Positions 5,606 to 61,328 are shown, numbered from the stretch's first letter. The stretch is 64,000 bases of DNA from Chloroflexota bacterium (GCA_015478725.1 JADMIG010000006.1:19781-83780), one strand, 5' to 3'. Notes: generated from the letters alone by a model not told the origin. Numbers and translations are program-made.

Positions 5606-5734
5606 CGCGCGTCACATGCTCCCATCGCAACAACCATGGGGTCGGCGAACGCTGACGGGACGCGCGTCCCGGCCTGCGGTCGCCGCAGCGGGAGAGGTGG
5701 GACCCGCTGGAATCGTAGTGTAGGCTGCTGCTCC

Positions 5735-9293: not shown

Positions 9294-9445
9294 GTTGCGC
9301 GCGGGTCGATCGCTCTGGATCTTACCTGGCGCCATGCAGGGTTTTCATCGCTGCGGTCCCATCAGCGGGGTGGTAGCGTCGCGCCGGTGCACGCAGTCAA
9401 CAGTGCACCGGCGGGCACCCACGACGCCGGCCTGGAGGGGACGAG

Positions 9446-21492: not shown

Positions 21493-22857
21493 ATGGAGGA
21501 GGATCGCGTGACCCGGATCGAAGCGCTCGTTGACGAGGGACTCGGCAACTCGTCGTACCTGATCGACATCGGCGACCGGCGCGCGCTCATCGTCGACCCC
21601 GCCCGCGACATCGCCCCCTACCTCGCGATCGCCCGATCGTCGGGACTCCGGATCTCCCATGCCGTCGAGACCCATCTCCACGCGGACTTCGTCTCTGGAA
21701 GCCGCGAGCTGGCCGCGATCGGGGCGACGATCGTCGCGCCGCGCGAGGCGGACCTGGCCTTTCCGGCCACCGGTCTCGACGACGGCGAGACGCTCGATCT
21801 CGGCGGCCTCCGGCTCGAGGCGATCGGCACGCCGGGCCACACGCCGGAGCATCTCGGGTATCTCCTTCACGACGGGGATCGGCCGGTCGCGCTCTTCTCG
21901 GGCGGTGCACTCCTGCCGGGTGCCGTCGCGCGGACGGATCTCATCTCCCCGGCTCGCACCGAACCGCTCGCCAGGTCGCTGTACCGCGCTCTCCACGAGC
22001 GGATCCTCAGCCTGCCGGACGACCTGCCGGTGTATCCGACGCACGGCAGCGGGTCGTTCTGTTCGACGACGGCGGCCGGCGAGCGGACGACGACGATCGG
22101 CCGCGAGCGAGCCTCCAACCCGCTCCTCGCGGCGTCGGACGAGGACACTTTCGTCGCACTCCTCCTGGAGTCCTTCGGCAGCTATCCGACGTACTTCCGG
22201 CGCCTCCGCGAGGTGAACCGTCGCGGGCCGCGAGTCTACGGGCAGCTTCCGAGCCTCGATGCCCTCGACGTCGGCGGGATCGACCGGGCGCTCGCGGCAG
22301 GCGCCGAGCTGGTCGACGCCCGACCGATCACGGCGTTCGCCGCCGGCCATGTCCCGGCCTCACTCTCGATCGCGCTCCGGCCGGAGTTCGCCTCCTGGCT
22401 CGGCTGGCTCGTTCCCGCCGACCGGGCGCTCGTCTTCATCCTCGGGCCGGGCGACGACCGCCGCGAGCTCGTCCGGCAGGCCCTCGGCATCGGCCACGAG
22501 CGGCTCCTCGGCGAGCTCGCCGGCGGAATCGACGCCTGGCGCGACGCCGGGCGTCCGCTCGCCGCGACGGAGATCCTCCGCTCGCTCGATCCTGCCACCG
22601 TGCCCGTGATCGACGTCCGTCAGGCGGCCGAGTTCGCGACCGGCCACGTCCCCGGCGCCACCCCGATCGAGCTCGGCGACCTCGTCGGCCCGTCGCTCGA
22701 GGCGGTCCCCCCGAGCGCGGCGTTCATCTGCGGCCACGGCGAGCGGGCGATGAGTGCGGCGAGCCTGGCCGAGCGCTCCGGTCGCAACGCCGCGGTCTTC
22801 CTCGGTGGGCCAGAGCGCTGGGCGCGCCGGACGAGCCTGCCGCTCGCCCGCGGCTGA
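21493..22857 (+). CDS. MBL-fold metallo-hydrolase (persulfide dioxygenase-like) fused to tandem rhodanese domains
   Basis: HLHADFVSG (HxHxDH variant), the downstream His/Asp ligand pattern, and two rhodanese-like modules (second with active-site CGHGER). A GTG alternative start at about 21508 follows a GGAGGAGG Shine-Dalgarno sequence. Confidence 0.8.
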   Translation: MEEDRVTRIEALVDEGLGNSSYLIDIGDRRALIVDPARDIAPYLAIARSSGLRISHAVETHLHADFVSGSRELAAIGATIVAPREADLAFPATGLDDGETLDLGGLRLEAIGTPGHTPEHLGYLLHDGDRPVALFSGGALLPGAVARTDLISPARTEPLARSLYRALHERILSLPDDLPVYPTHGSGSFCSTTAAGERTTTIGRERASNPLLAASDEDTFVALLLESFGSYPTYFRRLREVNRRGPRVYGQLPSLDALDVGGIDRALAAGAELVDARPITAFAAGHVPASLSIALRPEFASWLGWLVPADRALVFILGPGDDRRELVRQALGIGHERLLGELAGGIDAWRDAGRPLAATEILRSLDPATVPVIDVRQAAEFATGHVPGATPIELGDLVGPSLEAVPPSAAFICGHGERAMSAASLAERSGRNAAVFLGGPERWARRTSLPLARG

Positions 22858-24206
22858 TGGTCGACCCGTCGCGAACGACACCCCTCACCCTGGGCCTCCG
22901 GGCGAATATCGGGCAGTTCTCCCTCCTCGTCGGGGTGAATGCCTTGGTGGGTGGGATGGTGGGCCAGGAACGGACCGTCCTGCCGCTGCTCGCCCGCGAT
23001 GTGTTCGGCCTCGACGCGCTCAGCGCGGTCCTCACGTACATCCTCGCCTTCGGGATCACGAAGGCGATCGCGAATCTCGCGGCCGGCGCGCTCGCCGATC
23101 GGTACGGCCGCAAGCCTGTCCTCGTCGCCGGCTGGCTCGTGGGCCTGCCCGTCCCGGTCATGCTCATCCTCGCCCCCTCGTGGAGCTGGATCGTGGCCGC
23201 AAACGTGCTGCTCGGCCTCAACCAGGGCCTCACGTGGTCGACGACGGTCATCATGAAGATCGACCTCGTCGGCCCCGCGCGGCGAGGTCTGGCGATGGGG
23301 CTCAACGAGGCGGCGGGCTACGGCGCGCTCGCGGTGACGGCCCTCCTCACCGGGCTCATCGCCGCCCAGGCGGGACTGCGGCCGGCGCCGTTCTTCCTCG
23401 GTCTCGCCTACGCCGGGCTCGGCCTGGGCGTGTCCGCGCTGTTCGTCCGAGAGACGCGCGGGCACGTCGCGCTCGAGGGCGCGGGGAGTGGGCGATCCGA
23501 CGCGATCGGACCGCGGGCCCCCGCCACCCCCTGGCGGTCCGTCTTCTGGCGGACGACCATCGGGAACCGGTCGCTCTCGGCGGCCTCGCAGGCGGGTCTC
23601 GTGAACAACCTCAACGACGGCCTCGCCTGGGGACTCCTGCCGCTCTACTACGCGGCGGCTGGACGGTCGATCGCCGAGATCGGCGTCCTGTCCGCCGCCT
23701 ACCCGGCGGTCTGGAGCGTCGGCCAGATCGTCACCGGCGCGCTGTCGGACCGGACCGGGCGGAAGCCCCTCATCGTGGGGGGCATGCTCGTCCAGGGCGC
23801 AGCCCTCGCGGCGATCGCGGCCACCACGTCGTTCGGGCCTTCGCTCGCCGCGGCCGCGGCCCTCGGTGTCGGTACGGCGATGGTGTATCCGACGCTGCTC
23901 GCGGCCGTCGCCGACGTCGCGGAGCCGGCGTGGCGGGGCTCGGCCGTGGGCGTCTATCGGCTCTGGCGGGACCTCGGCTTCGCCGTGGGGGCCATCGTCG
24001 CGGGAGCGATCGCCGACGCGGCAGGGATCTCGAGCGCCATCTGGGCCGTCGCCGCGCTCACCGCGCTGTCAGGCCTCGTCGTCCTCGTCCGGATGGATGA
24101 GACGCACGCTCGGCGTCAGGGCGCGGGCTCGACCGGGAGTCCGGCCGCGGCCCAGGCCTCGAAGCCGCCGATCACGTCGGTCGCCCGCGAGAACCCGAGG
24201 TCCTGA
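22857..24206 (+). CDS. MFS transporter
   Basis: 449 aa, 12 TM, motif A-like GALADRYGRK. Its start overlaps the upstream stop (TGATG). Confidence 0.85.
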   Translation: MVDPSRTTPLTLGLRANIGQFSLLVGVNALVGGMVGQERTVLPLLARDVFGLDALSAVLTYILAFGITKAIANLAAGALADRYGRKPVLVAGWLVGLPVPVMLILAPSWSWIVAANVLLGLNQGLTWSTTVIMKIDLVGPARRGLAMGLNEAAGYGALAVTALLTGLIAAQAGLRPAPFFLGLAYAGLGLGVSALFVRETRGHVALEGAGSGRSDAIGPRAPATPWRSVFWRTTIGNRSLSAASQAGLVNNLNDGLAWGLLPLYYAAAGRSIAEIGVLSAAYPAVWSVGQIVTGALSDRTGRKPLIVGGMLVQGAALAAIAATTSFGPSLAAAAALGVGTAMVYPTLLAAVADVAEPAWRGSAVGVYRLWRDLGFAVGAIVAGAIADAAGISSAIWAVAALTALSGLVVLVRMDETHARRQGAGSTGSPAAAQASKPPITSVARENPRS

Positions 24207-24956: not shown

Positions 24957-25460
24957 TCACGGTTCGGCTGGGCGATCCGCGAACGGCGCCATCCGGCCGA
25001 CCGCGACGAGGAGGCCGTGGATGAGCGCCTCCGGCCGGGGCGGGCAGCCGGGCACGAGCACGTCGACCGGAAGGACGTCGCCGATGCCGTCGCGGCCCGC
25101 GTAGCTGCCGGCGAAGACACCACCGCTGATCGCACACGCCCCAACGGCCACGACGAGTCGGGGCGCCGGCATCGCCTCGTACGTCCGCAGGGCGGCTTCC
25201 TCCAGGTTCCTCGTCATGATTCCGGTGACGAGCAGCAAGTCCGCGTGGCGAGGCGAGGCGACGAAGTCGATGCCGAGGCGCTGGACGTCGTGATACGGGT
25301 TGAGCAGCGCGGCGATCTCCCAGTCGCAGCCGTTGCAGGAGCCGGTGTCGAGGTGGCGGACATGGAGCGAACGACCGAGCGTCCGCTCGATCGTCCGGCG
25401 GAGCCGCCGCGCTGCGACCAGCTCGTCCTGCGGAATGGCGTCGGCCGAAAAGCCCGTCAC
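24957..25460 (-). CDS. hycG: Group 4 [NiFe]-hydrogenase small subunit (HycG/NuoB family)
   Basis: GSCNGC, then VAVGACAISGG and PGCPP cysteine motifs of the NuoB/HycG 4Fe-4S subunit. 167 aa. Confidence 0.85.
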   Translation of the reverse strand: MTGFSADAIPQDELVAARRLRRTIERTLGRSLHVRHLDTGSCNGCDWEIAALLNPYHDVQRLGIDFVASPRHADLLLVTGIMTRNLEEAALRTYEAMPAPRLVVAVGACAISGGVFAGSYAGRDGIGDVLPVDVLVPGCPPRPEALIHGLLVAVGRMAPFADRPAEP

Positions 25461-25802
25461 CGCCCTGCTCTCCAGTCGCGCCGGATCGTGAGATCCGCCC
25501 GGTCACGGACGGCGAGCTCGATCAGTGGCCCGAGCCGGATCGCGCCGCGGGGGCAGGCCCGGGCACAGGCGCCGCAGACGATGCAGGCACCGGCATCGAG
25601 CGACCAGGCCGAACCATCGAGGCGGATGGCCCCGGTCGGGCAGGCGCTCACACACGAGGCCGAACCATCGCAGCGGACCGCGTCGAGCCTAGGCAAGCCT
25701 CGAGCCGCCGACGGAAGCTCGGGGGGATCATCGGGATAGCCGCTCGTGACCGGCCGCTGGCGAAGTGGACGAAGGAGGCGATCGAAGACGTCGAGGGGCA
25801 CG
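25457..25802 (-). CDS. hycF: 2x[4Fe-4S] ferredoxin subunit (HycF/NuoI-like)
   Basis: Two CxxCxxCxxxCP motifs (CDGSASCVSACP, CIVCGACARACP) and TSGYP. The proposed GTG start lies 1 nt after the large-subunit stop, and the gene's stop overlaps the hycG start. The ORF-track N-terminal extension is the shadow of hycE. Confidence 0.7.
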
Positions 25803-27332
25803 TCAGCGATCCGTGCAGGCGTAGCAGAGCTCGAAGCTCTTGTTGATGAGCGGAAAGTCGGGCACGAGGTTACCGGGGGCAGCGGCCGCGACCAGCGGCC
25901 AGTTCGCGAACGAGGCCGACCGCAGGTGCAGCCGGTCGACGGTCCCGCCGGAGCCCGCTCGAAGCCAGACCCACGACGTGCCCCGTGGGCCCTCGGCCCC
26001 GCCGATGGCGGTGTCGCCGAGCGCCGGCATCCGGACGGGCGGCTCCGCGATCGGCCCGCCGGGCAAGCGGCGGATGGCCTGGCGCACGAGCCCGAGCGAA
26101 TCGTGAGCCTCCTGGGCACGAACGTGGAACCGGGCGGCCACATCTCCCCCCGCAGCGGTGACCAGCCCGACCTCGACCTCGCCATACGCTGCGTACGGCC
26201 GATCGCGTCGCAGATCAGGCGCGAGCCCGCTGGCGCGGGCCGTGGGCCCGAGCGCCCCGAGGGCAGCGGCCGTGTCGCGGCCCACGACGCCTGTGCCATG
26301 GAAGCGGGCCATGACCCCCTCCGAGCGGACGATTGCGCGGACGGCTGCGGCGAGTTCCGTGCCGATCTCATCGAGGGCGTCCGGCAGCGCGGCGAGGCCG
26401 CCCGGATCGAGGTCCGTGCAGAGGCCCCCAGGGGCCACGATCCCGGTGAGATAGCGATGACCGGTGAGCGCATCGTTTCGCCGCAGGAGACGTTCCTTGA
26501 GCCAGCCGAGTCGCGCGACCGCCGACTGGAACCCGATTCCGGCGCAGATGTTCCCGAGATCGCCGACGTGGTTGTAGAGGCGTTCGAGTTCCGCGAGCAG
26601 GACCCGCGCCCAGCGGGCCCGTGGCGGGATCTCCGTTCCTGTCAGGTGCTCGACTGCCTGCGAGTAGGCCAGCGCGTGCGTGACCGTGCAGACGCCGCAG
26701 GCCCGCTCGACGATCGGGAGCGCCGCCCCGAACGAGCGACACTCGACGAGCTTTTCGAGGCCCCGATGGACGAAGAACAGCCGGGCGTCCAGGTGCAGGA
26801 CACGCTCGCCGATCGCCGAGAACCGGAAGTGTCCGGGCTCGATGACGCCGGCGTGGATGGGTCCGACCGGGAGCTGGTAGACACCCTCGCCGTGGACTTC
26901 GAACGGCACGAAACGACGCTCGGCGACAGGCGGCCGAGCGTCGGCCGGGACATCCTTGCGGAGCGGGTGGTAGCCGCGCGGCCAGCGCTCGTGAAGGACG
27001 AGCCGGCGCGGGTCCGGGTGGCCGAGCGGAACGATCCCGAAGAGGTCTTTCGCCTCGCGCTCGTCCCAGTGGGCGGCTGGAACGAGTGGGCTGATGGACG
27101 GGTAGGCGGGCTCGTCGTGCGGCAGCGCGGCACGCAGCCTGGCGAGTTCACCGTCCGGGCGAGCGACCACCGCCTCGATTGCCAGGCTGTCACCGCCGAC
27201 CGACCGCTCATCGAGCCCGACGAGCATGACGAACCGGCCGCCCACGTCGACGAGAGACCTGACGCGTTTCCCGAGGTCGTCGGGCGCGACCCACTCGAAG
27301 GTCGCGCTCGTCATCGGGAGAGGCTCAGCCAC
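25803..27332 (-). CDS. hycE: [NiFe]-hydrogenase large subunit, fused NuoC-NuoD type (HycE-like)
   Basis: N-terminal NuoC-like 150 aa (WDEREAKDLFGI). The L1 Ni-binding motif RACGVCTVTH is present. The C-terminal L2-like motif is ELCYACTDR (CxxCxxR). 509 aa. Confidence 0.85.
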   Translation of the reverse strand: MAEPLPMTSATFEWVAPDDLGKRVRSLVDVGGRFVMLVGLDERSVGGDSLAIEAVVARPDGELARLRAALPHDEPAYPSISPLVPAAHWDEREAKDLFGIVPLGHPDPRRLVLHERWPRGYHPLRKDVPADARPPVAERRFVPFEVHGEGVYQLPVGPIHAGVIEPGHFRFSAIGERVLHLDARLFFVHRGLEKLVECRSFGAALPIVERACGVCTVTHALAYSQAVEHLTGTEIPPRARWARVLLAELERLYNHVGDLGNICAGIGFQSAVARLGWLKERLLRRNDALTGHRYLTGIVAPGGLCTDLDPGGLAALPDALDEIGTELAAAVRAIVRSEGVMARFHGTGVVGRDTAAALGALGPTARASGLAPDLRRDRPYAAYGEVEVGLVTAAGGDVAARFHVRAQEAHDSLGLVRQAIRRLPGGPIAEPPVRMPALGDTAIGGAEGPRGTSWVWLRAGSGGTVDRLHLRSASFANWPLVAAAAPGNLVPDFPLINKSFELCYACTDR

Positions 27333-28812
27333 GTCCCCCTCCGAGCACCAATGCGACCTGCTCGAGCACAGCGGCGAGCGGCGAGGGTGTCCAGAGCCCC
27401 GCGACGACGACGGCGGTCAGGGGAACCCCGAGAAGGAACGCCCACCGACCCGCGGCAGGGCCGGGTTCCGGAATCGGCCCGGGCCGTCCGGCCGGCCCGA
27501 CCGACACCCGCATGACGTGGAACAGGAGGCCGGCGACTGCGAGGGCGAGGATCGCCGCCGCCGCTCCCGCGGCCAGGCCCCAGCCTGCCTGCACGCCACC
27601 CAGCAGGATCGCAACCTCGGCCGCGAAGACGCCGGACGGCGGCAGCCCGGCGAGCACGAGCGCCGCGACGACGAGCGCCCGTCCGTCCGCCGGCGAGCGG
27701 GCGAGACTGCCAGCCAGACGGCCGATCCGGCGGCTCCCCCGCTCGGCGACGAGGCGCCCCGCGGCGAGGAAGGCGGTCGACTTGGCCAGACCGTGGCTGA
27801 TCAGATGGAGGCTCAGCCCGAGCAGCGCCAGATGGCCCCCGAAGCCGAGCGCCAGCGTCGCCAGTCCCAGGTGCTCGATCGACGAGTACGCGAGGAGGCG
27901 CTTGATATCACCCTGGGCGACGATGAACGGGAGCGCCACAGCGAGGCTGAGGAGGCCGAAGACGACGAGGAGCGTCGAGGAGAACGCCGACCCGAGGGCG
28001 GCCGCCGTGACGAGGTGGAACCGGGCGAGCGCGTAGAGCGCGACCGCCAGCGCCGCGCCCGACAGGAGGGCCGAGATCGGGCTCGGGGCCTGGCTGTGGG
28101 CGTCCGGCAACCAGGTGTGGAAGGGCACGAGGCCGGCTTTCGTCCCATACCCGGCAAGCGCGAAGAGGAACGCCAGGCGGACGAGGCCCGGATCGAGCCG
28201 CGGCGCGATCTCCATCAGACGGGTCCAGTCAAGCGCGTCGCTCGTCTCGCCGAGCGCGCCGACCGACGAGGCGTAGAGGAGGAGGGTCCCGAGCAGGGCG
28301 AACCCGATCCCGATCGAGCCGAGGATGAGGTATTTCCAGGCGGCCTCGATCGCTGCGGGCGTGCGGGCGAAACCGACGAGGAGCGCCGACACGATCGTCG
28401 TCGCCTCGATCCCGATCCACACGAGCCCGAGGTTGTCGAGGAGCGGGACCGCGGCGAGACCGGCGGCGAACAGGAGGAGAAGTGCGTAGTAGCGGCCGGT
28501 GTCGTGCGGACGGAGGAGCCCGGCCGCACGCTCGTGAGCCAGGTGACCAGGTGAACCGGCCACCGCGATCGCGGCGACGGCCAGGACGAGGACCACCACG
28601 TACGCGCCCAGCGCGTCGACGACGACCTGGCCGCCGAACGCCCGGAGCGGGCCCTCGACGAAGACCCGCGCCGCGAGGAGGAGTCCCGCCGCGAGCGCCG
28701 TCACGAGACCGCCGCCCGCCAGGCGACTCGCCCGCCGATCGTCGGCGAACCAGGCAACGAGGCCGGCGATCGTGGGAGCGGCGACGATGAGCGCAACGAG
28801 CAGCTCCGTCAT
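27325..28812 (-). CDS. hyfF: hydrogenase-4 component F-like antiporter subunit (NuoN/NuoM family)
   Basis: About 495 aa, 14 TM, with the conserved WLPDAH and the GLAKS region of complex-I M/N subunits. Internal start MTELLVALIV at 28812. Confidence 0.8.
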   Translation of the reverse strand: MTELLVALIVAAPTIAGLVAWFADDRRASRLAGGGLVTALAAGLLLAARVFVEGPLRAFGGQVVVDALGAYVVVLVLAVAAIAVAGSPGHLAHERAAGLLRPHDTGRYYALLLLFAAGLAAVPLLDNLGLVWIGIEATTIVSALLVGFARTPAAIEAAWKYLILGSIGIGFALLGTLLLYASSVGALGETSDALDWTRLMEIAPRLDPGLVRLAFLFALAGYGTKAGLVPFHTWLPDAHSQAPSPISALLSGAALAVALYALARFHLVTAAALGSAFSSTLLVVFGLLSLAVALPFIVAQGDIKRLLAYSSIEHLGLATLALGFGGHLALLGLSLHLISHGLAKSTAFLAAGRLVAERGSRRIGRLAGSLARSPADGRALVVAALVLAGLPPSGVFAAEVAILLGGVQAGWGLAAGAAAAILALAVAGLLFHVMRVSVGPAGRPGPIPEPGPAAGRWAFLLGVPLTAVVVAGLWTPSPLAAVLEQVALVLGGGRG

Positions 28813-29486
28813 CCGCGCAGGTTCCGCAGGCGATCGGTCGAGGTGCTGCCGAGGACGTCGAGCATGCGGCGCGCATAGACCCACGCGACGACGACCGCGA
28901 TGAGCAGGTCGAAGAGCACGCCGAGTTCCACGACGAGGGGCATCCCATAGGTCAGCGAGAAGGCTGTCAGGGCGATCCCGTTCTCAAAGACGAGCAGGCC
29001 GACGATGAGGGACAGCGCCTTGCGGCGGGTCATGACGATGAGCAGGCCGGTGAGCACCTCGGCGATGGCAGCGGGCAGGCCCCGGCTCGCTGCGACGCTC
29101 GCCCCGACGAACGCCCCATCCGCGGCCACACTCGCGGCGAAGACGATCGCGACCGCCGCGACGAGGGAGGTGCGCGGACCGATCAGCGGGTGTCGCTCGC
29201 GCCGCACCGCCGAGCGCCGCAGGATCGAGCCGAGGACAAGCGGAACGACGAGACCCTTGACGACGATCGCGAGCAGCCCGCCGATCAGGAGGTGGCCGGC
29301 GCCAGTCGCCAGGCCGACGCCGAGGGCTGCGACGCCGGTGAGCGCCGATTGGATCGCCACGAGCCAGATCGACCGTCCGATCGAGCGGGTGGCGGCGAGC
29401 CCGATACCGAGCACGACGATCGCCGCCGCGCACGCGTCGACGATCTGGCTCGCCGTCCGTGGATCGAGGCTCATGCCGGCAACCAC
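28809..29486 (-). CDS. hyfE: hydrogenase-4 component E-like membrane subunit (HyfE/HycP)
   Basis: About 220 aa, 7 TM, NuoK-like segments. The start is at 29486 or 29474. Confidence 0.7.
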   Translation of the reverse strand: MVAGMSLDPRTASQIVDACAAAIVVLGIGLAATRSIGRSIWLVAIQSALTGVAALGVGLATGAGHLLIGGLLAIVVKGLVVPLVLGSILRRSAVRRERHPLIGPRTSLVAAVAIVFAASVAADGAFVGASVAASRGLPAAIAEVLTGLLIVMTRRKALSLIVGLLVFENGIALTAFSLTYGMPLVVELGVLFDLLIAVVVAWVYARRMLDVLGSTSTDRLRNLRG

Positions 29487-30433
29487 AGGCGGGTCGCGAG
29501 ACCGATCGCGGCGATGATCGAGGCAGTCGCGAGGAGGCCCGGCAGGGCGAGGAGGCGCAGCTTCGCGAGGGCGGCATCGAGCACGCCAAGAACGATCGCG
29601 GCCCCGACCAGCTTCGCGAGTGCGGCGCCGATCGCGATGACCAGTGCCAGCGGTGTCAGGTCGACCGCGGCGCCGAGCGGCAGGAATGCGGCGGCGAACA
29701 GACCCACCACGAGGACCAGTTTGAGCTCGGCCGCATACATGAGGATCGCCAGGCGCGGGCCTGACGCCTCGAGGAGCATCCCCTCGTGGATCATCGTCAG
29801 CTCGAGGTGGGTGTCGGGATTGTCCACCGGCTCGTGGCCGGTCTCGGCGACGGCGACGATGGCGTAGGCGGCGGCCGCGAGCAGGAGCGCCGGGGTGTAC
29901 CAGGAGATCCCCGAGGCGGCTCCGCGCGCCGCGATCGTGCCGAGATCGGTCGACCCCGCCGCCAGCGCGGCGCCGGTCAGCGCGAGGAGGAGCGCCGGCT
30001 CGACGAGGGTCGCGATCGCGACCTCGCGGCTGCTCCCCATCCCGCCGAAGGCACTGCCGGCGTCAAGCGCCGAGAGGGCGAGGACGAACCGTCCGAGGGC
30101 CATGAGACCGACGACCACGAGCAGGTCGCCCCAGCCGTCGAGGGGCGCACGGACCGCGACCATCGGCACGAGGAGCGTGGCCACGACAACCGTGGCGAGA
30201 ACGATCGCCGGCGCCGCCGCGGTCAGTGGACTCGCCGCGTCGCTCTCGACCGACTCCTTCGCCCACCATTTCGCGAGGTCCCGATACGGCTGGAGGAGGG
30301 AGGGTCCTCGGCGGTACTGGAGGCGCGCCTTGACCCGCTTCGTGATCCCCAGCAGGAGCGGCGCCACGAGGAGCGTGAGCGCCGCCTGGATCACGGCCGG
30401 GACGAGCGTCTGCACGACCGTCGGAGTGATCAT
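29471..30433 (-). CDS. hycD: formate hydrogenlyase subunit 4-like membrane subunit (HycD/NuoH family)
   Basis: Internal start MITPTVVQTL at 30433 (ATGA overlap with hyfB). About 320 aa, 8 TM. The ORF-track N-terminal 122 aa is an Arg/Pro-rich shadow. Confidence 0.8.
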   Translation of the reverse strand: MITPTVVQTLVPAVIQAALTLLVAPLLLGITKRVKARLQYRRGPSLLQPYRDLAKWWAKESVESDAASPLTAAAPAIVLATVVVATLLVPMVAVRAPLDGWGDLLVVVGLMALGRFVLALSALDAGSAFGGMGSSREVAIATLVEPALLLALTGAALAAGSTDLGTIAARGAASGISWYTPALLLAAAAYAIVAVAETGHEPVDNPDTHLELTMIHEGMLLEASGPRLAILMYAAELKLVLVVGLFAAAFLPLGAAVDLTPLALVIAIGAALAKLVGAAIVLGVLDAALAKLRLLALPGLLATASIIAAIGLATRLWLPA

Positions 30434-32451
30434 GCGTGGGCGAGCAGGAGGAGCGCGATGAGCGCCGTGACAGCGTACGCGAGATACAGCTGGAGGCTGC
30501 CGGACTGGAGGCGGCGGACGAGCTGCGCGGCATCGATCGCCGCACGATGGAGCGGCCGGTAGAGGCGCTCGTCGATCAGGTGGCTGACCTCGCCCCGGTA
30601 GCGGACCGTGCGCGCGAACGGCGTGCCGGGGTGGAACTCGACCGAGATCTCGCGCACCGGTCGCAGGACCGGCCCGAAGTACAGCCGGATGAGCTTCGCG
30701 TAGCTCGTCGCGGTGTATTCGAACGCGGGCTCGGGCACGATGCCGCACGTCCACGTCGCGGTCCGGCGGGTCTGCCGTCGGCGCACGCCGACGAGCCACG
30801 TGACGCCGGCGATGGCGACCAGGAGGACGGTGAGCGGCGCGGCAGCGTACACGGCGCCGATCCCGCCGACTGCCCCGGTCGCCGCGGCATGGGATCCCGA
30901 CCCGACAAGCTCACCCGCTACCTCGAGGATGACGCTCGACACCGGCCCTGCGGCGATCCCGACGCCGATGCAGGCGATGGCGAGGCTCGCCATGGCGGCA
31001 CCCATCGTTCGACCGGTCTCTCGAGCGCCCGCCGCTCCGGGACTGCGCGGCAGAGCGAGGAATGACATCCCGGTCGCCTTGACGAAGCAGGCGACCGCGA
31101 GGGCGGCGGTCAGTGCGAGACCCGCGACCGTGAGGAGCACCGCCGACCGCGCAACGAGCGACAGCGCGGGATCGCCGCCCGCACCGATCAGGCCCTGGAA
31201 CGTCAGCCACTCACTGGCGAAGCCATTGAGTGGCGGGAGCCCGCTGATGGCCGCGGCGCCGATCCCAAACGCGAGAGCGGTGACGGGCATCGCCCTGGCG
31301 AGTCCGCCGAGGACGTTGAGGTCCCGAGACCCGACAGCCGACTGGATCGAGCCGGCGGCAAGGAAGAGGACGGATTTGAAGAGCGCGTGATTGAGGGTGT
31401 GGAAGAGTGCTGCGGTGAGCGCGACCGCAGCGAGGGCGGTCGCGCCGTCACCGAGAGCCAGGATCGCGACCCCGACGCCGATCAGGATGATCCCGATGTT
31501 CTCGATGCTGTGGAAGGCGAGGAGGCGCTTGAGGTCGTGCTCCATCAACGCGTAGAGGACGCCCAGTACCGCTGACGCGACGCCGATCGCGAGGACGAGG
31601 AGGCCCCACCACTCCGGACCCGGGCCGAGCAGGTCGAGCCCGAAGCGGACGATCCCGTAGACACCGGCCTTGATCATCACCCCGGACATGAGTGCCGAGA
31701 CGTGCGATGGCGCGACCGGATGAGCCCTCGGCAGCCAGACATGCAACGGGATGGCACCGGCCTTTGTGCCGAAGCCGAGGAGCAGGAGCAGGAAGACGAT
31801 GTCACGTGCCCCCGGCGGGAGGCGCGCCGCGGCCTGGCCGAAGGCACCGAAGCTCGTCGAGCCCGCGGTCGCTGCAAGGATCGCGAACGCGATGATGAGG
31901 GCGGCCGTCGCGAGATGGGTCAGCGCGAGGTACAGGTAACCGGCGCGCGCGACATCCGCGCTGGGACGCGATCCGACGACGAGGATTGCCGAGCTCAACG
32001 CCATGATCTCCCAGGCGAACAGGAACGCGAAGACGTCGTCTGCGCCGAATACGAGCGCCAGGCTGGCGATGAACACCGGGTAGGCAGCGGCGGTCCGATC
32101 GCCCGAAGCGCCATGGGCCGTGTAGCCGATGCCGAACACCGAGCTCGCGGCGCCCGCGACACCGAGGACGACGAGGAACAGCCCGCCGAGCGGGTCGTAC
32201 CGGACGTGGATCAGGGCGAACCCGAGGACGTCGCCGGCGCTGGCGAGGAGCGGCGTCCCGGAGGCGATGACGCTCACCCCGAGACCGAAGATGCCGACGC
32301 ACGCCAGGGCCGAGAGCGACAGAGACAGGGCCTGCGGGTTCGCCCTCGAGCGCGGAGCGATCGCCGCGACGGTCGACAGCACGAGCAGCACCGCGACGGC
32401 GGCAAGGAGCGACGCATCAGCCGCTCCCCCGAGCGCGCTCGCGATCGACAC
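30430..32451 (-). CDS. hyfB: hydrogenase-4 component B-like subunit (HyfB/HycC; NuoL family)
   Basis: 673 aa, about 16 TM, with the conserved WLPRAH and HxxxHALFK. GTG start at 32451, preceded by GGTAGAGGA. Confidence 0.8.
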   Translation of the reverse strand: MSIASALGGAADASLLAAVAVLLVLSTVAAIAPRSRANPQALSLSLSALACVGIFGLGVSVIASGTPLLASAGDVLGFALIHVRYDPLGGLFLVVLGVAGAASSVFGIGYTAHGASGDRTAAAYPVFIASLALVFGADDVFAFLFAWEIMALSSAILVVGSRPSADVARAGYLYLALTHLATAALIIAFAILAATAGSTSFGAFGQAAARLPPGARDIVFLLLLLGFGTKAGAIPLHVWLPRAHPVAPSHVSALMSGVMIKAGVYGIVRFGLDLLGPGPEWWGLLVLAIGVASAVLGVLYALMEHDLKRLLAFHSIENIGIILIGVGVAILALGDGATALAAVALTAALFHTLNHALFKSVLFLAAGSIQSAVGSRDLNVLGGLARAMPVTALAFGIGAAAISGLPPLNGFASEWLTFQGLIGAGGDPALSLVARSAVLLTVAGLALTAALAVACFVKATGMSFLALPRSPGAAGARETGRTMGAAMASLAIACIGVGIAAGPVSSVILEVAGELVGSGSHAAATGAVGGIGAVYAAAPLTVLLVAIAGVTWLVGVRRRQTRRTATWTCGIVPEPAFEYTATSYAKLIRLYFGPVLRPVREISVEFHPGTPFARTVRYRGEVSHLIDERLYRPLHRAAIDAAQLVRRLQSGSLQLYLAYAVTALIALLLLAHA

Positions 32452-32466
32452 TCGGGTCCTCTACCT

Positions 32467-32495
32467 CTGTCTCGCCGTGATCACCCGCGAGACAG
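32467..32495. promoter_or_regulatory. 9-bp perfect inverted repeat (CTGTCTCGC ... GCGAGACAG) with 11-nt spacer containing GTGATCAC, in the hyf operon leader
   Basis: Seen directly in the sequence. It lies between the AT-rich -10-like island and the hyfB GTG start. It could be an operator or a 5'-UTR stem-loop. Confidence 0.4.
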
Positions 32496-32516
32496 AGATC
32501 GCGCGGTATCGGCCTT

Positions 32517-32560
32517 CTTAATTATATATTCCAAGTCTTGAAGTCTGCAGAACAAGTAGT
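32517..32560 (-). promoter_or_regulatory. AT-rich island with TATATAAT (-10-like) box; candidate promoter of the hydrogenase operon
   Basis: cttaattatatattccaagtcttgaagtctgcagaacaag is about 30% GC in a 70% GC context. On the minus strand it reads TATAAT about 70 nt upstream of the hyfB start. Confidence 0.4.
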
Positions 32561-32654
32561 GGACGAGGCGATCCCACGCGCCGGTGACCCGGCGACGGAG
32601 CGTCGGGCGCGGGCGGGGGCTCGATGGCGACGCCCTCGACAGGGCGCGAGCCGT

Positions 32655-33050
32655 TCAGCGCACGCGCCGGCGGGCGACAGTCGAGAGGTGAGGGCGCTCG
32701 CGATGAACCTGCCTTGTCGGGGTCGCTGGAGTCGGCGAGGGTACGGTCGCCGGTGCCGGTTTGCTTCGAAGCCGCAGCTGGTGAAGGGACCAGTCGATGT
32801 CGCCCTTTTCGGCCGGGGGCACGGTCGACCGGGCCGATCGAAGAACCTCGATCGCCAGCGGAGTTTCCCCGTTCGTGCCGGCCCGCTCGATGACGCGGAT
32901 CGCAAAAGCAGCCAGGGTCGGCTTGACGAGCCACGGCCGGACGCCCTCGATGGCCCGTGCTCCGTGGGCGGCGATCCGGTCGCGCCACTCGATGCGATGC
33001 ATGGGCGACGCCGTTTCCGCTTCCTGCAGCAACGCCGACAGTTCCATCAC
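32655..33050 (-). CDS. hypothetical protein (131 aa), possibly first gene of or accessory to the hydrogenase operon
   Basis: ORF MMELSALLQEAETASPMHRIEWRDRIAAHGARAIEGV... with consistently high GC3. It lies between the ArsR promoter region and the hyf promoter. No recognisable motif. Confidence 0.3.
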   Translation of the reverse strand: MMELSALLQEAETASPMHRIEWRDRIAAHGARAIEGVRPWLVKPTLAAFAIRVIERAGTNGETPLAIEVLRSARSTVPPAEKGDIDWSLHQLRLRSKPAPATVPSPTPATPTRQVHRERPHLSTVARRRVR

Positions 33051-33209
33051 GCCTCCGCGATCGAGTCGCCCCGCCGGGCTCTGCGGCCGGACGCACTCCC
33101 GTTCGAGATACTGAACATAAACTCCCAGGGTCCGGGCAACGCCTCCCGGACGACCCCTCCGGCGCGGTAGGCGCCACCGTCTGTCGCCCTCATTCTATCA
33201 CGTTGGCGA

Positions 33210-33225
33210 TTATCCTGCAAGATAA
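33210..33225. promoter_or_regulatory. imperfect palindrome TTATCCTGCAAGATAA, candidate ArsR-family operator
   Basis: 14 of 16 positions are self-complementary. It sits about 105 bp upstream of the ArsR start, in the divergent intergenic region. The local sequence is lower-GC. Confidence 0.3.
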
Positions 33226-33330
33226 CAGATAGACAATACATGGGCACGGTAGGATACTGCGCCCGAAGGCCCGGAAACCAGCCTCAGATTTGCGATCGGT
33301 GGGCCCAACCACAGAGGGACCTACGCGACC

Positions 33331-33705
33331 ATGGCACGCCAGGACTCCCGCGGCGATGACGCCGAGCGCCTCCGCCAGTTCAAAGCGGAGTTCTTCAAGG
33401 CGCTCGCACATCCGCTCCGCATCCGGATCCTCGAGCTTCTTCGGGGTGGTCCGCTGAGCGTGACGCAGATCCAGGAGGCGACCGGCGCGCCGGGATCGTC
33501 CGTGTCGCAGCAGCTCGCCGTCCTCCGCGGAAGGAATATCCTCGCCACCGAGCGCCGGGGCACCACGATCATCTATCGCGTCCCCGACCCCGAGTTGTTC
33601 GAGCTGCTCGACGTGGCACGGACGATCTTCAACACTCACCTGAGCGACACGATCGATATGCTGCGCCTGGTCGACAGCGAAGCGGCATCTGCCGGCGAGC
33701 GATGA
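33331..33705 (+). CDS. ArsR/SmtB family transcriptional regulator (no cysteines)
   Basis: 124 aa. The wHTH has ALAHPLRIRILELL...LSVTQIQEATGAPGSSVSQQLAVL. The protein has zero Cys, and His/Asp residues lie in the C-terminal helix. Confidence 0.9.
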   Translation: MARQDSRGDDAERLRQFKAEFFKALAHPLRIRILELLRGGPLSVTQIQEATGAPGSSVSQQLAVLRGRNILATERRGTTIIYRVPDPELFELLDVARTIFNTHLSDTIDMLRLVDSEAASAGER

Positions 33706-40354: not shown

Positions 40355-40490
40355 GGTGGATGCTCCACTTCGACGACCGGGGCATCTGCCCGATCTGGAG
40401 GTAGCCTGCTCCCCGGGTCGTGAGCGTTCGGTTAATCGGGAGCGGCCACCGATTCACGATCGATTCACATGAAGGGTGGATGATGACGTC

Positions 40491-41195
40491 ATGAAGATCC
40501 TCATGCTCGAGGATGACCAGCGCCTTCGATCGGTCGTCGTCCGCGGACTCCATCGCGCCGGTCACTCCGTCGAGGTCGCGGGCACCCTCGAGGAAGCGCG
40601 CTGGTTCCTCTCGGAAACGACCTCCGACGTCCTCATCCTCGACGTCATGCTGCCGGACGGCGACGGGTTCGGCCTGTGCGCCGAGCTTCGTGCCAAGGGC
40701 GACTGGACGCCCGTCCTCATGCTCACGGCGCGGGACGCGGTCACGGACCGGGTACGCGGCCTCGACGTGGGTGCGGACGACTATCTCGTCAAGCCGTTCG
40801 CATTCGCGGAGCTCGAGGCGCGCCTCCGGGCGCTCGACCGTCGCGGCACGAGCGAGCGTCCGCCGACGCTCATCGTCGGGACCCTCGAGCTTGATCCGGC
40901 GAGCCACCGGGCGACCCTGGGATCGCGGCGACTCGAGCTGACCGGACGGCAGTTCTCGCTGCTCGAGTTCTTCGCCCGGCGGGCGGACCAGGTCCTCCCC
41001 CGCTCCACGATCCTCGACCAGGTCTGGGACTGGGCCTTCGATGGCGACCCCCGGATCGTCGATGTGTACGTCCGCGCCCTCCGCCAGGCCCTGTCGTCCG
41101 GCCCGGGGGACCCGTCCATCGAGACGATCCGCGGCGTCGGATACACACTCCGCCCCGGCGGTCCCGCCGCCGAGCGCGAGCCCGCGCCATCGTGA
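40491..41195 (+). CDS. OmpR-family response regulator
   Basis: Receiver domain (MKILMLEDD..D..LMLTAR..K) plus a winged-helix trans_reg_C (RGVGYTL). Confidence 0.9.
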   Translation: MKILMLEDDQRLRSVVVRGLHRAGHSVEVAGTLEEARWFLSETTSDVLILDVMLPDGDGFGLCAELRAKGDWTPVLMLTARDAVTDRVRGLDVGADDYLVKPFAFAELEARLRALDRRGTSERPPTLIVGTLELDPASHRATLGSRRLELTGRQFSLLEFFARRADQVLPRSTILDQVWDWAFDGDPRIVDVYVRALRQALSSGPGDPSIETIRGVGYTLRPGGPAAEREPAPS

Positions 41196-41196
41196 C

Positions 41197-42579
41197 GTGA
41201 CGATCAGGGCGCGGCTCGCCGCGACCTACGCCGTGGGGCTCGTCATCACCGTCGCAGTGGTCGGCGCCCTCGTCTGGTGGCAGATGGACGGTGCGCTTCG
41301 AGCGTCGCTCGGGATGACCATCCAGACTCGCGCCGACGCCGTCCTCACCGCCGTCGAGAACGCCGGCCAGTCGGGACTCCAGAACACCGATCAGGCCGCC
41401 CCAGGCGTGTTCGCCGCACTCTTCTCACCGGCCGGAGTGCGTCTTGATGCAAGCGCGGACACGCCGCCAGGCATCCTCCCAGTGGCGGGCGTCCAGCAGC
41501 TCGGCGGCCGGCAGTATCTCGTCCTGACCACGATCGCCCAGGATGGGACGATCATCGTGACCGGCGCGGACCTCCGATCGATCTCCGATGCCGAGGCCGC
41601 GCTGGCCCGCGTGCTGGTCGGGGCGGGAGCGGCGACCGGAGCCGCGTCCGTGCTCGTGGCCTGGCTCCTCGCGCGGCGGGCGCTGCGACCGATCGACCGC
41701 CTCATCGAGTCCGCCTCCTCCCTCGGCCCGGACGATCTCACGCGGCGGCTCGACGCCCCGGACCGGGCGGACGAGGTGGGCCAGCTCACCGTCACCCTCA
41801 ACGGGATGCTCGACCGGATCGCTGAGTCCGTCGAGCGCCAGCGGCTGTTCGTCGCCATGGCGTCACATGAGCTGCGCACCCCGCTCGCCTCTCTTCGGGT
41901 GGAGCTCGATCTCGTCGATCGGGACGATGCCACGCCGGACGAGCTCCGCGACGCGCTCCGCCAGGCGCGGGGTGACGCGATCCGGCTCAGCGGTCTCTCG
42001 ACGAGCCTGCTCGAGCTCGCCGCCGTCGGCGTGGACGCGCGGGCGCTCGTCCTCGCGCCGGTCCGTGTCAACGAGCTGCTCCTCGGCGTCGTCCGAGGGC
42101 TGGACGGCCTCGCCCGTCAGCGGAGCGTCGAGGTCACCGTGGATGCGCCCGACGTCGTCGCCCGGGTCGACCGGACGAGGATCGAGCACGCCGTCGGCAA
42201 TCTCATCGCCAACGCGATCGTCCACGGCGGCAGCGGTGGCAGCGTCGAGGTCCACTGCCGCATCGAACCGGCGGCAATGGACAGGAGCCTCGTCGTGGAG
42301 GTCCTCGATCGCGGACCCGGCGTTGGGAGCGCACCGATCAGCGCCCTGTTCGAGCCGTTCCAGCAGGGTGCCGGGGGCCGGCATCGCGGCGCCGGGCTCG
42401 GCCTGGCGACCGTCGCGAGCGCGATCACGGCCCACGGCGGCACGTTCGGTGCGGCGAATCGCGACGGTGGAGGCGCGCGCTTCTGGTTCGCCGTGCCATT
42501 CAGCGACGCCGACCGGCCGGTCCCCGATCCGGTCCCTGAAGCCGCTCCCGGACCGGCGCCGCGATCGGCCCCCCGCTGA
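41197..42579 (+). CDS. sensor histidine kinase (2 TM, HAMP, HisKA, HATPase_c)
   Basis: GTG start 2 nt after the response-regulator stop. H-box SHELRTPL, N/G boxes (NLIANAIVHG, GxGLGL). Confidence 0.85.
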   Translation: MTIRARLAATYAVGLVITVAVVGALVWWQMDGALRASLGMTIQTRADAVLTAVENAGQSGLQNTDQAAPGVFAALFSPAGVRLDASADTPPGILPVAGVQQLGGRQYLVLTTIAQDGTIIVTGADLRSISDAEAALARVLVGAGAATGAASVLVAWLLARRALRPIDRLIESASSLGPDDLTRRLDAPDRADEVGQLTVTLNGMLDRIAESVERQRLFVAMASHELRTPLASLRVELDLVDRDDATPDELRDALRQARGDAIRLSGLSTSLLELAAVGVDARALVLAPVRVNELLLGVVRGLDGLARQRSVEVTVDAPDVVARVDRTRIEHAVGNLIANAIVHGGSGGSVEVHCRIEPAAMDRSLVVEVLDRGPGVGSAPISALFEPFQQGAGGRHRGAGLGLATVASAITAHGGTFGAANRDGGGARFWFAVPFSDADRPVPDPVPEAAPGPAPRSAPR

Positions 42580-42588: not shown

Positions 42589-43581
42589 TCAGGCGCGCGA
42601 GCGCTGGGCGAGGACGAACAGGGCGACCATCGATGGAACGACCAGGACGGCGCCGACGAGCAGGCTGATGAGGAGCGCGGTGAGGGTCGCCGGCGGGCCG
42701 GCCGCTTGGTCGATCGTCAACGAGCCCACGAGCAGATACGGGTACTGGGCCACCGCCCAGCCCCACAGAACCGCACCGACCGCGAGGCCGGCGGTGCCGC
42801 GGGCGAGGGCGAACCGGCGCCGTGCGAGGAGTGCGAGCGACGCGATCCCGGTAACGGCGGAAAGCACGACGAGCGGGAGCGCGCCGGCGGTCAGACCGGC
42901 GAACAGCGTGGGCGCATCGGCGTGGATGACGACGATGCCGAGGAGGGCGCCGGTGCCCACCGTCAGGCCGCTCGCGAGCGCCCGTCCCCGGAACGCCTCG
43001 ACGAGCGCGGCGTCGCCGGTCCGTCGAGCATCCGAGGTGAGGTAGACCGCCGCCAGAAACGCGCACAGGCCGACCGCGAGGACGCCGCCGAGCACGGACG
43101 TCGGGTTGAGCCAGCTGCCGATCGGATCGCCGGCCGCATTGCCGGGCGGCACCCGGCCCGATGCGACACCTCCCGCGATCGCCCCGAGGAAGAACGGTGT
43201 GACGATCGATGAAAGCCCGAAGATCATCCCGAAGCGGCGCCGCAGATCGGGATCCGCGACGGACTTCCGGAACGCGAACCCGGAGCCGCGGAGGATGATC
43301 CCGATGGCGACGAGCGTGAGCGGGATGTAGAGGGTCGACGCGACCGCGGCGAAGACCACCGGGAACGCGGTCCAGACCACGACGATGGCGAAGATGAGCC
43401 AGACATGGTTCGCCTCCCACACCGGGCCGATCGTGTCCTCGATGAGGTCACGGATCGCGGCGCCCTGACGGCGGCCGGCCGTCAGGTCCCAGAAACCGGC
43501 CCCGAAGTCGGCGCCACCGAACAGCGCATACGCCGTGAGGCCGGCCCAGGTGAGGAACAGGATGGCGTCGGCCGTGGTCAT
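42589..43581 (-). CDS. cydB: cytochrome bd ubiquinol oxidase subunit II
   Basis: Internal start MTTADAILFLTWAGLTAYALFGGADFGAGFW (CydB N-terminal signature). ATGA overlap with cydA. The ORF-track 5' extension of 96 aa is Arg/Pro-rich shadow. Confidence 0.85.
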   Translation of the reverse strand: MTTADAILFLTWAGLTAYALFGGADFGAGFWDLTAGRRQGAAIRDLIEDTIGPVWEANHVWLIFAIVVVWTAFPVVFAAVASTLYIPLTLVAIGIILRGSGFAFRKSVADPDLRRRFGMIFGLSSIVTPFFLGAIAGGVASGRVPPGNAAGDPIGSWLNPTSVLGGVLAVGLCAFLAAVYLTSDARRTGDAALVEAFRGRALASGLTVGTGALLGIVVIHADAPTLFAGLTAGALPLVVLSAVTGIASLALLARRRFALARGTAGLAVGAVLWGWAVAQYPYLLVGSLTIDQAAGPPATLTALLISLLVGAVLVVPSMVALFVLAQRSRA

Positions 43582-47423: not shown

Positions 47424-47524
47424 CCCCCGGTCACCCCGGCTGCCCTTATTGCGACGTGTTGTAAGAACGGGGTATCCTCACCGTCCGGACCGGCTGCCTG
47501 CCGGTCACGAAGCGGAGAGCCGGA

Positions 47525-61324: not shown

Positions 61325-61328
61325 CCGC

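Follow-up and report, generated by a model that had tools for sequence, protein, structure and literature searches.

The hydrogenase locus and its genes

We analysed a stretch of 64,000 nucleotides from a Chloroflexota bacterium (GCA_015478725.1 JADMIG010000006.1:19781-83780), referred to here as the window, with positions counted from its first letter. The subject is a set of seven minus-strand genes for the subunits of a group 4 [NiFe]-hydrogenase, together with an ArsR/SmtB-type regulator gene on the opposite strand and a small conserved gene, orf131, that lies between them. These genes are as follows.

30430-32451, minus strand: hyfB-like (NuoL-like) antiporter-type subunit, 673 amino acids, first structural gene; Pfam Proton_antipo_M
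29471-30433, minus strand: hycD-like membrane anchor of the NuoH type, 320 amino acids; Pfam NADHdh
28809-29474, minus strand: hyfE-like small membrane subunit, 221 amino acids; weak Pfam Oxidored_q2 match, NCBIfam NF008556
27325-28812, minus strand: hyfF-like (NuoN-like) antiporter-type membrane subunit, 495 amino acids; Proton_antipo_M, E 7e-49
25803-27332, minus strand: large subunit, hycE-like fused NuoC-NuoD, 509 amino acids; Pfam Complex1_30kDa, Complex1_49kDa and NiFeSe_Hases
25457-25801, minus strand: hycF-like ferredoxin-type subunit of the 2x[4Fe-4S] type, 114 amino acids; Pfam Fer4 families
24957-25460, minus strand: small subunit, hycG-like with the NuoB fold, 167 amino acids; Pfam Oxidored_q6, E 8e-31
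32655-33050, minus strand: orf131, conserved hypothetical gene of 131 codons between hyfB and the regulator gene; present at NCBI in a 115-amino-acid form, IVW53_06455
33331-33705, plus strand: Rv0081-type ArsR/SmtB regulator, 124 amino acids; Pfam HTH_5, NCBIfam NF033788, PDB 6jmi

The initial annotation had described seven tightly coupled minus-strand genes, and all seven were recovered as open reading frames (ORFs) with the expected domains and with overlapping or near-abutting junctions. From hyfB to hycG these junctions are ATGA three times, GTGGCTGA (an 8-nt overlap), TGAcGTG, where the GTG start of the hycF-like gene at 25801 lies 1 nt past the hycE stop, and finally GTGA. The large subunit has an alternative start (ATG at 27314), which would give a protein of 503 amino acids. 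The reading frames are intact and coupled and show a normal codon-position GC; G+C is ∼70% across the window, with no compositional break at the hydrogenase locus. The operon encodes both arms of the enzyme: the large, small and short two-cluster ferredoxin-like subunits make up the peripheral arm, and the NuoH-like anchor, two antiporter-like subunits with Proton_antipo_M domains and the HyfE-like subunit make up the membrane arm. The best PDB match of the hyfB-like protein was 7z0s_C (HycC of the E. coli formate hydrogenlyase, FHL), and that of the hycD-like protein was 7z0s_D (E 5e-44).

The large and small subunits are of the hydrogenase type

The best PDB match of the large subunit was 7z0s_E (E. 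coli HycE; 296 bits), followed by Pyrococcus MbhL (163 bits), and all the complex-I NuoD and NuoCD chains scored below these two. In the alignment with 7z0s_E, the L1 region of the large subunit (ERACGVCTVTH) pairs through RACGVCTVTH with RVCGICGFAH of HycE, and its C-terminus, ...ELCYACTDR followed by the stop codon, pairs with DPCYSCTDR. The four Ni-Fe ligand cysteines, C212, C215, C503 and C506, are invariant in an alignment of 17 sequences (35-81% identity) that includes E. coli-type HycE, and they also align with those of MbhL. For the small subunit the best PDB matches were Pyrococcus MbhJ (144 bits) and E. coli HycG (133 bits), with complex-I NuoB at 97 bits or less; its four proximal [4Fe-4S] cysteines, in SCNGC, GAC and PGCPP, are present and align with both MbhJ and HycG. 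At the level of sequence, we thus confirmed that the locus encodes a group 4 [NiFe]-hydrogenase with a complete set of Ni-Fe ligands. Both the Ni-binding L1 motif and the C-terminal CxxCxxR reported in the initial annotation stood up to alignment with HycE and MbhL, and so did its view of the protein as a real hydrogenase rather than a complex-I relic.

The large subunit is 100% identical to a protein on a 121.5-kb contig of a Chloroflexi metagenome-assembled genome (MAG), which is named 'NADH-quinone oxidoreductase subunit C' at NCBI. As the large subunit is of the hydrogenase type, this public name is misleading and is corrected here. Several of its relatives are publicly named NuoC or NuoF; complex-I names appear to have been given to this clade of large subunits systematically, and in error.

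A non-hydrogenase complex-I-like 'Ehr' module, or a decaying relic, would be in line with the NCBI name of the identical protein. It would also agree with the NCBIfam result for the large subunit, in which no cut-off of a hydrogenase model was reached and the top matches were NuoD models, and with the lack of Ni-Fe ligands in some proteins binned as 4f. The invariance of the four Ni-Fe cysteines essentially refutes this explanation, and we give it next to no credence: HycE and MbhL outscore every complex-I chain, the genes are coupled, uninterrupted and normal in their codon-position GC, and the family is both conserved and abundant (7393 proteins at E≤1e-10).

Class of the enzyme and spread of the family

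The large subunit stops exactly at the Arg after which E. coli HycE is processed and carries no C-terminal extension. The extension is likewise absent in all homologues from 80 related genome loci (individual loci are numbered here with the prefix L), whereas the E. coli-type sequences P0171 and P0179 carry ∼30 further residues. In a neighbour-joining tree (356 columns, rooted with MbhL), the 90 extension-less sequences were separated from MbhL and two E. coli-type sequences in 100 of 100 bootstraps; the extension-less set includes the protein from the window as well as those of Desulfosporosinus (L018) and Desulfitobacteriia (L025). Six-gene clusters of Desulfosporosinus orientis (Desor_1265-1270) and Desulfitobacterium hafniense (ACL22288-93) have been reported as HydDB group 4f, and so have a seven-gene cluster of Methylocystis and an anammox enzyme. 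Placement in 4f is therefore by proxy: the neighbours in the tree are the Desulfosporosinus and Desulfitobacteriia sequences, and the 4f labels in the literature belong to congeners of these. On this neighbour-joining proxy we filed the large subunit as 4f-like (Ehf), a probable member of the group under which the literature places this extension-less Hyf-like clade. Cluster look-ups of the distant relatives of the large subunit returned generic names only and no subgroup labels, and a literature search for a HydDB label of Rv0087 gave nothing usable.

Judged from its sequence features, the large subunit is not of the E. coli type (4a): it has no extension, no HycB/FdhF partner, and the operon scores below the curated thresholds. 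None of the NCBIfam Hyf/Hyc equivalog cut-offs for HyfB, HyfF, HyfE and HycF was reached. The hyfB-like protein scored 634 bits with NF005086, 'hydrogenase 4 subunit B' (cut-off 667); the best models for the hyfF-like protein were those of 'hydrogenase 4 subunit F' (352 bits, cut-off 543); the hyfE-like protein matched NF008556, 'hydrogenase 4 membrane subunit', over its full length (E 1e-26, 94 bits, cut-off 136); and the hycF-like protein scored 76 bits with NF009053, 'formate hydrogenlyase iron-sulfur subunit' (cut-off 204). The small subunit passed NF005012 with 124 bits (cut-off 116).

In a scan of 1.84 billion cluster representatives with the large subunit, 11,107 proteins matched at E≤0.001, of which 1,084 also passed E≤1e-30. 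Relatives with 75-83% identity, where named, are Chloroflexota or Candidatus Limnocylindrales, and identity drops to 59% for the closest representative of a 50%-identity cluster from outside the Limnocylindria group. Other names for the Limnocylindria lineage are Ellin6529, RIF-CHLX and Eulabeiota; group 4 hydrogenases have been reported from across this supergroup. The order hyfB-hycD-hyfE-hyfF-large-(FeS)-small is found in most of the 80 genome loci, with examples in Chloroflexota, Bacillota, Acidobacteriota, Nitrospirota, Verrucomicrobiota, Gemmatimonadota, Rokubacteria, bins labelled Patescibacteria, Thaumarchaeota and Methanosarcinales. The Fe-S gene is missing in many of these loci, which leaves a gap of 70-140 bp between hycE and hycG and gives the six-gene form seen in M. 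tuberculosis.

Duplications were also observed among the related loci. Two tandem copies of the whole operon are present in Nitrospirota L056 (4808-19841) and Fibrobacteria L061; the HyfB gene is duplicated in Vicinamibacteria L031 and L033 and in L041; and in Methanomassiliicoccus L042 a second, more distant group 4 cluster adjoins the hydrogenase operon.

The iron-sulfur subunit and the electron donor

The best full-length PDB match of the hycF-like protein was 7z0s_F, of which it covers only positions 7-106 (114 amino acids vs 180 in E. coli). Its second cluster motif is the canonical CIVCGACARACP. The first is CDGSASCVSACP, in which the second Cys is missing. This form, C-x2-(S/N/G/D)-x2-C-x3-CP, occurs throughout the Limnocylindria clade (the window, L001, L004, L005 and L006), and other clades have CxxCxxCxxxCP. 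In classical ferredoxins the three-Cys pattern goes with a [3Fe-4S] or a non-Cys-ligated cluster, and the motif suggests that the Limnocylindria HycF would hold a cluster of one of these two kinds.

Partner genes bear on the source of the electrons. The initial annotation had noted that formate dehydrogenase, CO dehydrogenase and hyp genes are lacking in the window, and a domain search of ∼50 ORFs that cover the 64 kb gave the same result, with no hyp, fdh or cooS domain. Nor did any FdhF, HycB/HyfA, CooS or hyp family recur when the surroundings of 82 related loci were searched to a distance of 10 kb. Given that HycB/FdhF modules are linked to none of these 82 loci, a soluble donor such as ferredoxin is the simplest reading.

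The main rival to a soluble donor is a separately encoded formate dehydrogenase. The operon would then be the hydrogenase half of a true formate hydrogenlyase of the FHL-2 kind, and a formate dehydrogenase encoded elsewhere would dock on HycF and couple the conversion of formate to CO2 and H2 to ion pumping. Formate coupling is what HydDB and the papers citing it predict for 4f, and the seven 4f genes of Methylocystis are co-induced with formate dehydrogenases at low pH. The best PDB matches of the subunits are E. coli FHL chains, and the window contains a Mop/TOBE regulator of the molybdate type (49680-50120). However, neither FdhF nor the HycB/HyfA connector has a gene within the window, the two families do not recur near the related loci, and the short HycF aligns only to the first part of its E. 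coli counterpart. We consider this explanation unlikely, though serious enough to be kept beside the soluble donor.

An Rv0081-type regulator is linked to hydrogenase genes in several phyla

The regulator had been described as an ArsR/SmtB protein without cysteines, and indeed the gene at 33331-33705 encodes 0 Cys and 2 His. Its best PDB match was Rv0081 of M. tuberculosis (6jmi_A; E 5e-20, 74.7 bits, residues 11-112), followed by NmtR (54 bits). The recognition helix, GSSVSQQL, aligns with ESSNLSQQL of Rv0081, and SSxxSQQ is common to the two; the DNA-reading residues of Rv0081, as defined by mutagenesis, are Ser48, Ser49, Ser52 and Gln53. D86 and E88 align with D104 and H106 of SmtB, and the further ligand positions (11 and 14 residues on) are occupied by Ile and Thr. 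From this alignment and the absence of Cys, the protein is predicted to have neither an alpha3 nor an alpha5 metal site. The exact protein, with the same gene order, was assembled independently in two other sequencing runs.

The regulator gene had also been placed divergent from the hydrogenase operon. It does lie on the opposite strand, but the gene directly divergent from it is orf131, and its start is 880 bp from hyfB.

We examined the linkage in 59 genome loci that have a complete hydrogenase operon and at least 800 bp on either side. An Rv0081-like ArsR gene was found within 1.5 kb in 14 of them, from Chloroflexota, Acidobacteriota, Rokubacteria and Bacillota. It is co-directional and upstream of hyfB in seven, downstream of the small subunit in two and divergent in one; the remaining four (Rokubacteria L047, L054, L076 and L077) show the exact M. 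tuberculosis order, ArsR-small subunit-HyfB-HycD-HyfE-HyfF-HycE. L001 and L002, whose large subunits are 80% and 76% identical to that of the window, have a divergent ArsR gene, as in the window. Among 34 metagenome loci with an ArsR protein of at least 62% identity, hydrogenase structural genes stand beside the ArsR gene in 10 despite the short contigs, in arrangements that vary and include convergent ones.

These data indicate that the linkage of ArsR and hydrogenase is not a coincidence of this genome. A linkage in 14 of 59 loci and in five arrangements is hard to explain without a functional link between the two. An actinobacterial host had been considered in view of the 70% G+C and the likeness to M. 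tuberculosis, but was rejected on the identical protein of a Chloroflexi MAG and the relatives named Limnocylindrales. As the host is a Chloroflexota MAG of the Limnocylindria type, an uncultured bacterium of soil or freshwater, the resemblance to M. tuberculosis does not come from an actinobacterial host. In M. tuberculosis, Rv0081 represses the Rv0081-88 locus, which is induced under hypoxia, and it is also known as a hub regulator of the hypoxic response with many targets.

Control regions

The following control features were found between the regulator gene and hyfB.

33209-33258, both strands: back-to-back promoter-like sites with a candidate ArsR operator (promoter scan)
32526-32521, minus strand: candidate internal -10 element for hyfB, a perfect TATAAT; TATAAT or TATAGT at the same place in L085 and L099
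32465-32497, minus strand: hairpin in the hyfB leader with a perfect 11-bp stem and an 11-nt loop; arms 32465-32475 and 32487-32497, 11/11 complementary

The promoter scan of 32400-33400 returned two sites against 0.1 expected: TTGTCT-16-GATAAT on the minus strand (33236 to 33209) and TAGACA-17-GATACT on the plus strand (33230 to 33258). A palindrome had been proposed at 33210-33225 and is present there as TTATCCTGCAAGATAA, in imperfect form; it covers the -10 element and the spacer of the minus-strand promoter. The operator of Rv0081 defined by experiment is TATCTGATAAATTCTTC, with contacts at TATCT and TCTTC. We found TATCTGTTATCTT on the minus strand at 33231-33219, where it overlaps the -10 of the minus-strand promoter; it is the only match to TATCT-N1-8-TCTT in the 64 kb (0.13 expected). 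In 28 related spacers next to ArsR genes, the best match to TATCYTGCARGATA averages 10.25 of 14 positions vs 8.35 in shuffles, and 15 of these spacers reach p≤0.05. The conserved part is mainly the left half, TATCTTGCA. We consider the 33231-33219 site a credible but unproven operator of ArsR.

Two other operator candidates were rejected. The conserved 14-mer CAGATAGACAATAC occurs only in the window and in L001, and is more likely a promoter -35 element with its spacer. A second operator at the CTGCAG-containing 32543-32556 before hyfB, suggested by eye, was not backed by the Rv0081-type pattern or by the palindrome search.

The TATAAT before hyfB was not called in the promoter scan and has a poor -35 element. 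The inverted repeat that had been noted upstream of hyfB proved to be the perfect stem given above, and its 3' arm runs into a purine-rich, Shine-Dalgarno-like GGAGGU. The minimum free energy fold of this single sequence has a z-score of only -1.24. An alignment of four sequences (the window, L085, L086 and L099) gives a 13-bp consensus stem with G-U pairs and two compensatory pairs. Rfam returned no family for the hairpin and no riboswitch; its two matches were sub-threshold chance matches inside coding regions. This pattern is suggestive of an RNA-level element rather than a protein operator.

The conserved partner gene orf131

Searches of Pfam and NCBIfam with the product of orf131 found nothing up to E 10. 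It has 201 homologues, all called 'hypothetical' and none in a named family, with 25 invariant columns among the first 90 residues; beyond these, a linker rich in Pro and Ala varies between homologues, and a basic motif is conserved at the C-terminus. The possibility of a spurious ORF of high-GC DNA was rejected on these conserved columns and on the calling of the gene in independent assemblies. The AlphaFold model shows a confident five-helix HEAT-like domain (residues 4-96) and a disordered basic tail; the predicted local distance difference test score has a mean of 84 and is above 90 over residues 1-95. In L001 and in 23 of the 34 metagenome loci with a close ArsR, it is this gene that diverges directly from ArsR; L002 lacks it.

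In L093 the ArsR-orf131 pair adjoins hypFCDE instead of structural genes: hypF (C-terminal part)-hypC-hypD-hypE (4910-8370, minus strand) lies directly downstream of, and convergent with, an ArsR gene whose product is 79% identical to that of the window. The presence of hypFCDE in this locus shows that the lineage has [NiFe] maturation genes, and also that the pair tracks hydrogenase-related genes.

ArsR might govern only itself and orf131, or an unrelated regulon, with hyfB under its own promoter. The 203 bp between orf131 and hyfB hold the perfect TATAAT and the conserved leader, and neither pattern nor palindrome searches found an operator-like site near hyfB. Moreover, the ArsR-orf131 pair occurs in L093 and L094 with no hydrogenase structural gene within 4 kb, and the many targets of Rv0081 in M. 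tuberculosis would fit such a regulon. Set against this are the related operons that ArsR abuts in 14 of the 59 complete loci, across four phyla and five arrangements, and the hypFCDE genes that take the place of the absent structural genes in L093. We regard a regulator without a role at the operon as quite unlikely.

Where the spacer between ArsR and orf131 is 550-655 bp, a further conserved ORF of ∼165 amino acids (PWA.ALNET/A...VTLL) lies between the two. It was found only in relatives, always on the minus strand (L085, 3344-3868; L094, 2676-3170; L088, 1074-1583; L089, 3194-3691), matches no Pfam family up to E 10, and has no counterpart in the window.

A bolder proposal is that ArsR does not sense its signal by itself and that orf131, which is restricted to this lineage, acts as its co-sensor or anti-repressor, so that the two would form an undescribed two-protein switch of hydrogen metabolism that moves as a unit to the side of either the structural genes or hypFCDE, and that the three-Cys HycF and the leader hairpin mark a 4f variant with its own electron input and translational control. 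We offer this as a long shot.

Surroundings of the operon

Below the operon are genes for an MFS transporter (22857-24206), an MBL-rhodanese protein, an aminotransferase and a peptide ABC system; above it are a YCII-like gene, an ABC importer, BacA and a two-component system. All of these are unrelated to the hydrogenase. The MFS transporter was considered as a formate or oxalate carrier and dropped, as NCBIfam gave generic MFS matches only. Further features are listed below.

42589-44915, minus strand: cytochrome bd oxidase subunits I and II, ∼10 kb from the operon
40476-42579: response regulator and histidine kinase pair, next to cytochrome bd
44942-47423: CbiQ-like gene and ABC ATPase
47525-48583: nickel permease of the HoxN/NixA family (HoxN/NicO); TIGR00802, 373 bits vs a cut-off of 333
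48562-49011, minus strand: Fur-family regulator
49680-50120: MerR-HTH/Mop-TOBE protein, a molybdate-type regulator

The genes from 44942 to 50120 form a metal-uptake cluster. A haem-biosynthesis block occupies 58213-63999 (minus strand) with a ferrochelatase, two tandem uroporphyrinogen-decarboxylase paralogues and a class-III aminotransferase (HemL-like); the matching contig L165 adds a chlorite-dismutase-like (HemQ-type) gene to this block. Genes for nucleotide second messengers are dense at 6612-11783 and 53280-55208, where two proteins have adenylate/guanylate cyclase domains (one of them also TPR), one has GGDEF and one GGDEF-EAL.

The operon, the nickel permease and the cytochrome bd genes together suggest that H2 production may carry the host through spells of low oxygen and excess reductant. 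Overexpression of the small RNA MTS1338 in M. tuberculosis raises the cyd genes and rv0082-87 together.

The cytochrome bd oxidase can also be read in another way, as a sign of a respiratory lifestyle. The enzyme would then run mainly in reverse, with the ion gradient driving an H2-dependent reduction of ferredoxin (an anaplerotic role like that of Ech/Eha) for CO2 fixation or other reductions in an otherwise aerobic host. Group 4 enzymes are reversible in methanogens. Genomes of Limnocylindria/Eulabeiota have been reported to have few hydrogenases, largely of the Rubisco-linked uptake type. On the other hand, the operon has no linked pathway that would consume ferredoxin, induction of its counterpart in M. 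tuberculosis occurs in hypoxia, a state of excess reductant, and the sequence does not discriminate the direction of catalysis. We consider this alternative distinctly improbable.

Proposed mechanism

We propose that the locus encodes an energy-converting, membrane-bound, 4f-like hydrogenase that reduces protons and is controlled by the divergent Rv0081-type ArsR protein. Electrons of low potential, for which reduced ferredoxin or some other soluble donor is the most likely source, would enter at the HycF-like subunit and pass to the Ni-Fe site, where protons would be reduced to H2, and the antiporter-like subunits would export H+ or Na+. Evolution of H2 would in this way rid the cell of excess reductant, with part of the energy conserved, at times when oxygen or other acceptors run short. 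Maturation of the large subunit should require Hyp proteins and, because the protein already ends exactly at the Arg of HycE cleavage, no endopeptidase. ArsR would act as a dimeric repressor devoid of a metal site, bound to the TATC(C/T)TGCA-containing element that overlaps the minus-strand -10, and its repression would be lifted by a signal, by analogy with Rv0081 on Rv0081-88. The minus-strand promoter may drive orf131 and probably the operon too, and a second promoter and the leader hairpin may act just before hyfB.

Several observations weigh against this proposal. The direction of catalysis and the electron donor were deduced only from missing partner genes, and the 64-kb window has no hyp genes. 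Among the seven subunits, the small subunit alone reached a curated NCBIfam cut-off. With one Cys absent from motif 1 of HycF, electron input may differ from that of known enzymes. Assignment of the operator is by resemblance: a TATCT-N1-8-TCTT match by itself arises in 11 of 100 shuffles, and relatives conserve only the left half and not the full palindrome. ArsR homologues of 50-61% identity are often unlinked, and no hydrogenase gene is present in at least 13 such loci that extend 4 kb to either side. With these points taken into account, we hold the proposal as a whole to be probable, with moderate confidence.

The locus is one more example of two known kinds, the 4f-like hydrogenases and the Rv0081-type regulators; what is added here is the breadth of the pairing of regulator and enzyme, and the conserved partner gene orf131. 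Hydrogenases of the 4f type are widespread in the phyla of soil and sediment (Chloroflexota, Acidobacteriota, Nitrospirota, Verrucomicrobiota, Rokubacteria, Thaumarchaeota and Bacillota), and M. tuberculosis has one such enzyme, governed by Rv0081. Recurrence of the pairing in at least four other phyla and in five gene arrangements argues that control of this enzyme was the ancestral job of Rv0081. The natural variants of regulator and hydrogenase across the phyla provide comparative material for finding the signal that releases Rv0081, the operator and the electron donor.

Comparison with known systems

The initial annotation had regarded the locus as a mirror of M. tuberculosis Rv0081-Rv0087. 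The kinship of the regulators and the homology of the subunits bear this out, whereas gene order, HycF and orf131 differ. Neither regulator has Cys or a canonical metal site, and SSxxSQQ is common to the two; each adjoins homologous genes for HyfB, HycD, HyfE (HycP), HyfF (HycQ), HycE and a NuoB-like subunit; and the window carries an operator-like TATCT...TCTT element. However, Rv0081 is the co-directional first gene of its locus, an orientation also found in 11 other loci, and the ArsR gene of the window is divergent. In M. tuberculosis the small subunit, Rv0082, stands ahead of the membrane genes, and in the window it comes last. Moreover, M. tuberculosis has six structural genes without HycF, whereas the window has a hycF-like gene, has orf131 ahead of hyfB, and belongs to a Chloroflexota MAG.

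Compared to the 4f (Ehf) systems, the operon has the same set of subunits (six core genes with or without the Fe-S subunit) and likewise no linked formate dehydrogenase. Its large subunit groups with the homologues from Desulfosporosinus and Desulfitobacteriia in a clade separate from E. coli-type HycE. The differences are motif 1 of HycF, which has three Cys in the window, and the distance of the large subunit from the nearest 50%-identity cluster outside the Limnocylindria group (59% identity).

With the Hyc (FHL-1, 7z0s) and Hyf (FHL-2) systems of E. coli the operon shares the fused NuoC-NuoD large subunit; the order hyfB-C-(D)-E-F-G-H-I of Hyf matches that of the window apart from hyfD, and the best PDB matches of HyfB, HycD, HycE and HycF all lie in 7z0s. 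In contrast to E. coli, the window has no HycB/HyfA, FdhF or HyfD, identity is 35-38%, and the large subunit is without the extension, hence without processing of the HycI type.

The likeness to Ech and Mbh (4e and 4d) lies in the donor, which is likely of the ferredoxin type and would act directly on a small two-cluster subunit, in a large subunit that ends at ...DR with no extension, and in MbhJ as the best PDB match of the small subunit. Unlike in these enzymes, the large subunit of the window is fused to NuoC and is closer to HycE (296 bits) than to MbhL (163 bits), and the membrane arm is built of two large antiporter-like subunits and HyfE.

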